NCBI GenBank assembly: GCA_038257035.1 | Contig: JBBSJT010000008.1 | Coordinates: forward strand, 1 to 36,574 | DNA length: 36,574 nt | Source: Chlamydiia bacterium | GTDB lineage: Bacteria; Chlamydiota; Chlamydiia; Chlamydiales; Parachlamydiaceae | Direction of reading: 5' to 3' | Shown: piece by piece, positions 14-429 of the stretch | Layout of the letters: every line of letters begins with the position of its first letter | Position numbering within the stretch: the first letter of the stretch is position 1 | Translations under genes and position numbers: made by a program | Notes under the pieces: model-generated | Database searches by the model: none | Told to the model about the DNA's origin: nothing | What the model saw: the letters and a program-made list of their open reading frames with translations, nothing else

Positions 14-225
14 AATTATAAAGCAGGCCTACAGCCTGCATTTTATACAATATCATTCCTAGGGCGATGCCCTAGGCTATTAAAAACCAGGCCTTCAGCC
101 TGGAAGACGATTTTTCAGGGCAAAGCCCTGGCTTATAATAGTCTAGGGCAACGCCCTAGGTATCAGTGCGTTACGATCGCAGGCTGAAGGCCTGCTTTAT
201 AATTTATTTTAGCTTAATGCGTATG
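14..225. repeat. Palindromic REP/MITE-like element, family A (distal end lies beyond the window)
   Basis: Outer inverted repeat AATTATAAAGCAGGCCTACAGCCTGC ... GCAGGCTGAAGGCCTGCTTTATAATT. It encloses the hairpins CCTAGGGCGATGCCCTAGG, CAGGCCTTCAGCCTG, CAGGGCAAAGCCCTG and CTAGGGCAACGCCCTAG, and ends in GCTTAATGCGTATG. A diverged inverted copy lies at 36403-36574. Confidence 0.9.
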
Positions 226-429
226 CGCGGATGCGACGACAGTATGTAGCCGCGGGTGTGAACCCGCGGATAACCGATAGTTAAAAATAAGCCACGTAAG
301 TGGCGACAGAATACTTATTATATAATATCTTTTGCTCTCTGTCGCAGCTATCTCAGCTCATTTTTTTTTCTAAATTGTCCGCGGGTTACCACCACCCGCG
401 GCTACATGCTGTCGTCGCATCCGCGACTA
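226..429. repeat. Palindromic REP-like element, family B (left tip truncated by family A)
   Basis: Arms CGCGGATGCGACGACAGTATGTAGCCGCGGGTG and CACCCGCGGCTACATGCTGTCGTCGCATCCGCGACTA, with an inner GCGACAGA/TCTGTCGC pair. A full copy lies at 14874-15069. Confidence 0.9.

Follow-up and report, generated by a model that had tools for sequence, protein, structure and literature searches.

How does one and the same repeat come to be joined, at two distant places, to the same point in a small GC-rich hairpin of two other repeats? The question is raised by a 36,574-bp stretch of DNA from a Chlamydiia bacterium of the family Parachlamydiaceae (GenBank assembly GCA_038257035.1, contig JBBSJT010000008.1). 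This stretch, hereafter the window, is the whole of contig C8 in a genome (G000) of 210 contigs, 2.37 Mb and 36% GC. Near its left end a repeat that we call family A abuts a repeat of family B, and near its right end family A abuts a repeat of family C. The original prediction, made from the letters of the window, took family A for a non-autonomous mobile element aimed at hairpins and served by an enzyme of the HUH type (including the transposases associated with repetitive extragenic palindromes, REPs, called RAYTs), of the IS110 type or of the tyrosine recombinase type. Our analysis keeps the mobile element and replaces its enzyme: with a probability of about 0.85, family A is a gene-less, non-autonomous transposable element of the miniature inverted-repeat kind (a MITE) derived from an insertion sequence (IS) of the IS4 family with IS231-like ends. 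This reading is carried by observed features, namely the 17-bp inverted repeats at the ends, the 10-bp target duplications, the statistics of the target sites and the presence of the same ends around IS4-family DDE transposase genes in relatives; the ends, the duplications and these genes also speak against the three enzyme classes first proposed. The junctions are resolved as MITE insertions, a further case of a known phenomenon, and not as a new hairpin-targeting recombinase system.

Structure of family A and of its junctions

Both junctions read as they had been described. On the left, GCTTAATGCGTATG (212-225) directly abuts CGCGGATGCGAC (226-237); the intact end of family B, TAGTCGCGAATGCGAC, starts at 14874, and the window's own B copy has a right arm that terminates in GTCGCATCCGCGACTA at 429. 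On the right, TCGC-TTAC-GCG (36392-36402) is followed by CTTACGCATTAAGC (36403-36416) or, read on the other strand, the family A terminus (36403-36419, with one mismatch, TAAG for TATG) abuts CGCGTAAGCGATCC (36393-36402). The copy of family C taken earlier as the intact form, GGATCGCTACGCGAC at 2917-2931, is only an approximate empty site for the right junction because its loop has 3 nt; further family C copies read ctgcCGCTTTAGCGatcctg, with a loop of 4 nt. The features involved are the following, a slash inside a site marking a cut.

1-225, forward strand: family A copy of subfamily A1, truncated by the contig start; its alignment with six complete copies puts the loss at the first 39 nt, the left inverted end among them.
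209-225, forward strand: right terminal inverted repeat TTAGCTTAATGCGTATG, which reads CATACGCATTAAGCTAA from the tip.
226-235: CGCGGATGCG, the 10-bp target duplication in its right-hand copy, found again on contig C110 ahead of the left end.
226-429: host repeat of family B, in which two-hairpin modules form a palindromic doublet.
416-425: unoccupied target site CGCATCCGCG of the GT/AC class, in the right arm of the left B copy.
2899-2967: family C variant (the supposed intact form), with the 3-nt loops CGC-TAC-GCG and CGC-TTC-GCG.
14874-15069: intact family B copy, a paralogous empty site, with the sites CGCGAATGCG (14878-14887) and CGCATTCGCG (15056-15065).
36357-36402: host repeat of family C, of which the last 10 nt (36393-36402) are the duplication copy CGCTTACGCG.
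36403-36574, reverse strand: family A copy of subfamily A2, cut by the contig end and without about the first 98 nt.

Seven copies of family A are complete within contigs, six of them 262-296 bp long and one (on C52) 469 bp, and all seven have inverted 17-bp ends. The six shorter copies, aligned with both window copies and with the 469-bp copy excluded, split into the two subfamilies, A1 and A2. A complete copy holds no open reading frame (ORF) of 30 aa or more, which agrees with the non-autonomous character proposed for the family, and the window does not encode its enzyme, again as had been expected. Family A is thus short, counts 44 ends in the genome, has inverted ends and a target duplication and is without a transposase gene, as is usual for a MITE.

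Perfect 10-bp direct repeats flank four of the seven complete copies (CGCGAATGCG on C2 and C23, CGCTACCGCG on C28 and CGCTTTAGCG on C58). The flanking triplets vary together on both sides, being TG.GTTAGC. on C52, TGCTGACGCA/TGCTGATGCA (TGC...GCA) in the congener G001 and TGC/GGC...GCA/GCC in G079, a genome from another genus of the same family, and they therefore belong to the duplication and not to the element. For this reason a duplication of 4 bp is excluded. We also rejected an inserter of the IS3 type, which enters REP loops with a 3-4-bp duplication and has two ORFs with a frameshift, as the transposase is assigned to the IS4 family (see below); IS3 ends read TG...CA. The duplication had been missed because both window copies run off the contig. 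What had been described as the same position in the 3' arm of a hairpin is one of two staggered cuts, 10 bp apart and symmetric about a 4-nt centre.

The left end missing from the window is supplied by the tail of contig C110, which ends in ...GTTAGT, CGCGGATGCG and CATGCGCATTAAGC... and overlaps the first 124 bases of the window (positions 1-124) with 0 mismatches. It restores the B end as TAGT-CGCGGATGCG-ACGACAG with a perfect 10-bp duplication; the outer 4 nt (TAGT) of the window's left B copy and the other copy of the duplication sit beyond the MITE, so that the remainder of the host repeat is found at the distal end, where it had been predicted. C110 could equally join C124, which has an identical target sequence, and further contigs overlap the window start because the repeat is shared. 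Among 30 unpaired family A ends, 25 run off their contig within 300 nt, which makes the family a main cause of the fragmentation of this assembly. On C23 (105-160), an additional CGCATG, which repeats 6 bp of the inverted-end tip, separates one MITE end from the target copy CGCATCCGCG. A full-text literature search found no paper combining 'miniature inverted-repeat' and 'Parachlamydiaceae'.

Choice of the target site

Across the genome, the 12-mer GCTTAATGCGTA occurs 25 times and the 17-mer TTAGCTTAATGCGTATG 51 times at up to 3 mismatches; 44 of its occurrences have at most 2 mismatches and at least 16 nt of flank. The flanks of these 44 ends, whose tabulation the original prediction had recommended, are not random. 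CGC-N4-GCG stands directly after 29 of them, against a background of 1.7e-4 per position (406 genomic sites), flank position 2 is G in 40 and position 9 is C in 40, and positions 1-3 are complementary to positions 8-10 in 35 of the 44 as compared with 2.2% in the background. Chance cannot account for this association of terminus and palindrome. The occupied CGC-N4-GCG sites have no fewer than 10 different centre sequences, which indicates many separate events, and the claim of repeated insertion at the same place in small GC-rich palindromes of other repeat families holds well beyond the two junctions of the window.

In an alternative reading, the same IS4-type transposase would recognise a structure, namely an extruded hairpin or cruciform with a 4-nt loop, so that any small GC-rich stem-loop could be used. 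The complementary flanks and a duplication that is always centred on the loop accord with it, as do sites that differ in sequence (CGC..GCG, GGT..ACC, TGC..GCA and AGC..GCT) and the flanks in the congener G002, which are small palindromes of other sequence. A hairpin is, however, not a sufficient target: all 114 perfect CG/CGC-N4-GCG/CG hairpins of the genome, which pair over 5 bp, are free, whereas the most-used site, that of family C (GC/CGC-N4-GCG/AT), pairs over 3 bp only. The nucleotides outside the palindrome differ as well between occupied and free sites: a purine-pyrimidine (RY) step follows 28 of the 29 occupied CGC-N4-GCG half-sites as against 168 of 754 free ones, and C at +1 is found in 0 of 29 occupied and 412 of 754 free half-sites. 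Moreover, the sites used in G079 are mostly imperfect palindromes, for example TGCCCTTGCC and GGCACGGGCA, all of which keep GC at positions 2-3 and 8-9. The RY flanks, the unused 5-bp hairpins and the imperfect palindromes favour a symmetric duplex motif over hairpin recognition, and we infer that what the transposase reads is the sequence of the duplex and not an extruded hairpin; recognition of the structure itself looks unlikely.

Just as unlikely, in our estimation, is that the junctions are not independent and descend from a few composite repeats (for example B joined to A) copied by the transposase of the host repeat or by recombination. All the B-arm junctions seen (C2, C23/C185, C8, C124, C110) do have A in the same orientation, and two G079 copies have exchanged flanks, which shows that recombination between copies occurs. 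Copying of composites is nevertheless hard to reconcile with the 10 or more duplication sequences at CGC-N4-GCG sites, whose two copies agree wherever both can be compared, with the differences among copies in the sequences outside the host repeat, and with the unoccupied sites that remain in both B (22 GT/AC sites) and C (13 GC/AT sites).

Origin of the transposase

In the congener G001, the ends of family A bound a 1491-bp IS. Its frameshifted ORF is in two pieces, of 316 and 130 aa, that match Pfam PF01609, and the 316-aa piece passes the NCBIfam model NF033592 ('IS4 family transposase') with 129.5 bits for a cut-off of 115; the split is read as decay. In G079, an IS of 1863 bp with the ends CATACGCGTTAAGCTAA is present in 11 near-identical copies and encodes an intact, single-ORF protein of 466 aa, 66% identical over the matched part. 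Its putative catalytic triad (D131, D202 and E338), assigned from motifs (LIEDST, IRDLGY, RWRIE) and the PF01609 match, has spacers of 70 and 135, within the IS4 range; the family hallmark is given as D(60-110)D(100-150)E in the part of De Palmenaer et al. (2008, PMC2266710) consulted for the DDE spacing. The signature Y-(2)-R-(3)-E-(6)-K of this family is found as YRARWRIELIFKQWK at residue 331 of the G079 protein and as YRSRWRVELIFKHWK in the G001 DNA, and the single transposase ORF (in G079) and the target duplication of about 10 bp are likewise those of IS4 elements. A Tn5 transposase structure in the Protein Data Bank matches weakly (E 0.057).

In the G079 element the 10-bp duplication is perfect in seven of the 11 copies and agrees at nine of ten positions in two, all 22 flanks fit NGC-N4-GCN, and the sites are in CCCGTGCCC-type repeats. 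In two of the 11 copies (L034 and L037; G079:C11, at about 1.909 Mb and 0.791 Mb), the right flank is the reverse complement of the usual duplication, which fits an inversion by recombination between inverted IS copies.

In G000, nothing of the full-length IS is assembled beyond its ends, which lie at contig edges. The 5' end is on C98 and C55, followed by the ORF start MMENKMQDLK, and C4, C63 and C170 carry the 3' end, where a C-terminus ...LCKDKRKRPTLRQSINAGRGYYKLETSNLGLKVA or ...GRGYYKLETSNLGLKVA and the stop run into the inverted repeat. The MITE ends are 83-89% identical to the 5' end of the IS over the first 34-36 nt. Judged from these sequences, the enzyme of family A is probably a DDE transposase of the IS4 family, from an element with IS231-like ends; the organism presumably still possesses it in an active form. 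The sole PF01609 gene of the assembly (610 aa, C175:512-2344) was rejected as a partner, having other ends and no A terminus.

The explanation first offered, in which a HUH/Y1, RAYT, IS200/IS605 or IS110-type recombinase inserts A at a fixed position of the 3' arm, is far less probable than either of the two weighed above. It had a basis in the gene content of the genome, with nine matches to the Y1 transposase domain PF01797 and one IS110-family gene on C109, and in the interior of A and the whole of B, which are doublets of hairpin modules that flank Y1 genes. Family A nevertheless departs from the IS200/IS605-RAYT pattern (no inverted repeats, no duplication, subterminal hairpins and a Y1/HUH enzyme) and from that of IS110 (a DEDD enzyme, no inverted ends and no or minimal duplication); to our knowledge, inverted ends and target duplications like its 17-bp repeats and 10-bp duplications are not features of IS200/IS605, RAYT/REPIN or IS110 elements (a REPIN being a doublet of REPs). 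The same ends enclose DDE genes of the IS4 family in two relatives. Contrary to what had been anticipated, no Y1/HUH or IS110 gene among the nine PF01797 matches and the C109 gene is bounded by CATACGCATTAAGC...GCTTAATGCGTATG, and the lists of termini and of genes share no locus. The IS110-family gene itself (C109:5507-5941, PF01548, in a 380-aa frame) is on a contig with no A terminus.

Assembly chimerism at collapsed repeats can be dismissed, for although both window copies are at contig ends, like most unpaired ends, and Logan contigs do not bridge 225/226, seven copies are internal to contigs and have matching duplications, the same ends bound the full-length IS in a congener, and the same architecture is found in the independent assemblies G001, G002 and G079. 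Of the sampled words, 46% are present in one public soil-metagenome run; none of the Logan contigs listed bridges 225/226, the short contigs breaking in the repeat. A high-depth Logan contig of 94 nt over 136-228 continues into a different target, TTTAGCGATC, and gives no verdict on the junction, while a summed depth of 60-129 over the MITE compared with 6.6 over 501-1000 fits a many-copy repeat and gives no copy number.

Weighing of the evidence and proposed mechanism

Several observations weigh against the derivation of family A from an IS4-family element that duplicates 10 bp at CGC-N4-GCG. The other three of the seven complete copies have duplications that match at 8/10, 7/10 and 6/10 positions. 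The IS copy of G001 is frameshifted, and a search of the G000 assembly for the gene body of the transposase found only C-terminal scraps of about 30 aa (E 0.6). No orthologous empty site was found in G001 or G002, where 226-2200 has 0 matches and 34400-36402 only matches of 53-155 nt at 70-80% identity, because these congeners are too divergent at the DNA level. Five full-length IS ends (C55, C98, C4, C63 and C170) sit at GGT-N4-ACC in the long hairpin of B; the difference in preference between MITE and full-length IS ends may come from a sibling transposase, from chance or from age, and it may be such a sibling that moves the MITE. G002 has 64 terminus matches, compared with 0 for a control, and CGC-N4-GCG is present at 0 of 29 fetched ends, where other short palindromes are found; the register of the flanks there suggests duplications of 11-12 bp, and the paired ends amount to two pairs only (48 bp and 321 bp), neither with matching flanks. 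Finally, the occupied sites come from few host-repeat families and cannot be counted as independent of one another, so that the RY preference is perhaps exaggerated. Because of the GGT-N4-ACC ends, the G002 flanks and the small number of host families, structure-based capture keeps some probability.

Two observations made on these ends stand apart. A rule linking the tip of the inverted end (GCGTATG or GCATATG) to the target (CG... or GG...) was dropped, since C55 and C98 have GCGTATG ends and yet GGT sites. The 48-bp element of G002 (C12:4528-4575) consists of two inverted ends back to back, without matching flanks, and is maybe a minimal deletion derivative.

For the insertion of an IS4-derived MITE of 262-270 bp we propose a mechanism that, taken as a whole, we hold with the same confidence as the derivation itself. 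The DDE transposase of the full-length element would be supplied in trans, would bind the 17-bp inverted ends and would move the element by cut-and-paste, the chemistry expected from its family. The target would be cut with a stagger of 10 bp, and repair would duplicate these 10 bp and leave one copy of the small palindrome at each end. A transposase complex of two-fold symmetry would prefer the two-fold symmetric site RY/CGC-N4-GCG/RY. In a genome of 36% GC such sites would mostly be within GC-rich intergenic repeats, so that the element would accumulate inside other repeats.

Host repeats and cargo

Family B has about 19 near-full-length copies in the genome, and GTAG adjoins its long hairpin. 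GTAG-tagged REPs are reported from the Planctomycetes-Verrucomicrobia-Chlamydiae (PVC) superphylum in the portion of Di Nocera (2013, PMC3733652) that bears on them. The arms of family B, and the two-hairpin modules inside family A, match RF01687 (Acido-Lenti-1), which Rfam lists as a small RNA of unknown function. The modules of the two window MITE copies are as follows.

58-102, forward strand: two-hairpin module of the left MITE copy, 36.5 bits with RF01687 for a cut-off of 37.
116-160, reverse strand: its inverted partner module, 26.5 bits with RF01687.
36471-36515, forward strand: partner module of the right-hand MITE copy, 31.3 bits with RF01687.
36530-36574, reverse strand: module of the right-hand MITE copy, 37.6 bits with RF01687, above the cut-off of 37.

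RF01687 has 77 matches in G000, 23 of them above the cut-off, and none in 14 control genomes; within the bacterial family, 34 of 73 genomes have matches, which mostly form inverted pairs with a spacing of about 140 bp. A Y1 gene sits between two inverted modules on C105 (2166-2807) and on C7 (10336-11096), and the Y1 gene of C119 has a module on one side. The interior of the MITE shares 78-88% identity with each flank of the C105 gene, and family B shares 78-82% with those of the C119 gene. From these modules and identities, B appears as a REPIN-like doublet of a Y1-transposase element, and A as the carrier of such a doublet between IS4-type ends; the Y1/HUH genes of the genome go with the host repeat B and with what A carries, and have no part in the A termini. 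REPINs and RAYTs are reportedly treated in work of Bertels and Rainey from 2011 and of Nunvar from 2010.

The association of the module with Y1 genes is seen outside this genome as well. At 13 Y1 loci scanned (five in G000 and eight in G005, G009, G019, G044 and G064), modules are present on both sides in five cases, on one side in one and on neither in seven, and in three metagenome-assembled genomes (MAGs) labelled as Verrucomicrobia, one of 12 Y1 matches (G089:C105:1889-2538) falls exactly between two RF01687 matches. Inverted modules around Y1 genes are thus known from six loci in five genomes (including L107, L108 and L110). Against NCBIfam models, the Y1 proteins score 62.6 and 68.1 bits with the IS200 model NF033573, above its cut-off of 55, and 23.8 and 23 bits with the RAYT model NF047646, below its cut-off of 80. 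Matches of the long B palindrome to microRNA and other Rfam families were far below their cut-offs and were discarded as generic hairpin matches.

These data suggest that the RF01687 module is a DNA repeat of the REP/REPIN type rather than an RNA gene; the literature passages on Acido-Lenti-1 that were consulted state no link with a transposase. A wider proposal, to which we give slightly less than even odds, is that RF01687 is the two-hairpin end module (REP) of Y1/HUH elements, that its doublets are their REPIN-like progeny, and that family A is a hybrid in which IS4-type ends have captured one such doublet and land preferentially in the hairpins of sibling doublets. The capture could perhaps have taken place through two flanking IS insertions followed by transposition from the inner ends. 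If this is true, a DDE transposon both carries and parasitises the non-autonomous offspring of a HUH transposon.

Other repeats of the window

G000 is dense in hairpin repeats of several families. In the window, palindromic intergenic elements with arms of 51, 42 and 86 nt are found at 20407-20578, 17305-17481 and 30872-31130, each of them related to about 9-27 loci elsewhere in G000. At 23173-26858, two neighbouring paralogues of about 570 aa (84-88% DNA identity) are each preceded by a palindromic element of 69 nt, a third copy of which starts at 26879. Four tandem paralogous genes (9479-14876, 395-476 aa) contain repeated units of 33-60 nt, which by eye look to be of the Sel1 or tetratricopeptide (TPR) type, and have upstream regions that are 69-88% identical.

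Significance

As a mobile element family A is ordinary, and the value of its identification is practical. It explains the heavy fragmentation of this chlamydial assembly, it defines cleanly, over 14 bp, the target motif of an IS231-like element of the Parachlamydiaceae that had not been described, and it shows that patterns of a repeat inside a repeat need no exotic hairpin recombinase. The by-product on Acido-Lenti-1 may matter more and is the part most worth following up: if confirmed widely, it would give an abundant Rfam family an explanation in mobile DNA and would change its annotation from small RNAs to DNA repeats of Y1 elements.

Comparison with known systems

The closest known relatives are the elements of the IS231 subgroup, for which the pertinent part of PMC2266710 gives the end consensus CAT-------AA--TAA, a duplication of 10-12 bp and a size of 1450-5400 bp. 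The family A end CATACGCATTAAGCTAA agrees with this consensus at 8 of 8 specified positions, and the 10-bp duplication and the IS sizes of 1491 and 1863 bp are within these ranges. Among plasmid sequences, the G079 transposase finds its best matches in IS4-family genes of the Bacillus cereus group (707 of 893 records, with an identity of about 30% over 96%), and one Bacillus IS4-family element ends in ...TTAGCTTGATAGCGATG. Family A and its full-length relatives thus share with IS231A and the IS231 subgroup a single-ORF transposase with DDE and YREK motifs, the ends, the 10-12-bp duplication and gene-less derivatives moved in trans, MIC231 being such an IS231-derived cassette. They share with IS231A also a symmetric GC-rich target with an unspecified centre (GGG-N5-CCC in IS231A). 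They differ in a protein identity of only about 30% and in their host, here a MAG of the Parachlamydiaceae, and a placement in the subgroup is suggested by ends and best matches; as compared with IS231A, the target is CGC-N4-GCG, the duplication has 10 and not 11 bp, and the cargo is a doublet of hairpin modules of a Y1 transposase.

The choice of target fits the model of staggered cuts in a palindromic target that a section of PMC2577343 sets out for IS231A (GGGNNNNNCCC, 11-bp duplication) and Tn10 (GNNGCTNAGCNNC, 9 bp). According to the same section, Tn10/IS10 resembles family A in that its consensus is symmetric and, inside the duplication, has GC at positions 2-3 and again at their mirror images (GCTNAGC within 9 bp). 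Its duplication of 9 bp, its CT... ends and the absence of an association with repeats set it apart. The likeness to REPIN, RAYT and IS200-type Y1 systems is of another kind, B and the interior of A being inverted doublets of a module that flanks Y1 genes; it concerns the host and what A carries, and has no bearing on how A moves.

REPs have been described as targets of ISs from five families, including IS4, in the part of Tobes and Pareja (2006, PMC1525189) dealing with such insertions, which names ISRm22 (listed under IS4), IS1397, ISKpn1 and ISPsy8 (IS3), and IS621, ISPpu9, ISPpu10 and ISPa11 (IS110); the statement that IS1397, IS621 and ISPpu10 target REPs, with which the hairpin hypothesis had begun, is borne out there. 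Family A has in common with these elements the recurrent insertion at one point of a palindromic intergenic repeat, although most of its copies are non-autonomous. In the account of PMC1525189, ISRm22 enters the palindrome at its axis and is flanked by a direct repeat, which in some copies has been exchanged by recombination, as in G079; it duplicates 6 bp, the IS3 members duplicate 3 bp and the IS110 members are without inverted ends, whereas family A duplicates 10 bp. Family A is one more case of an IS landing in REP-type repeats.

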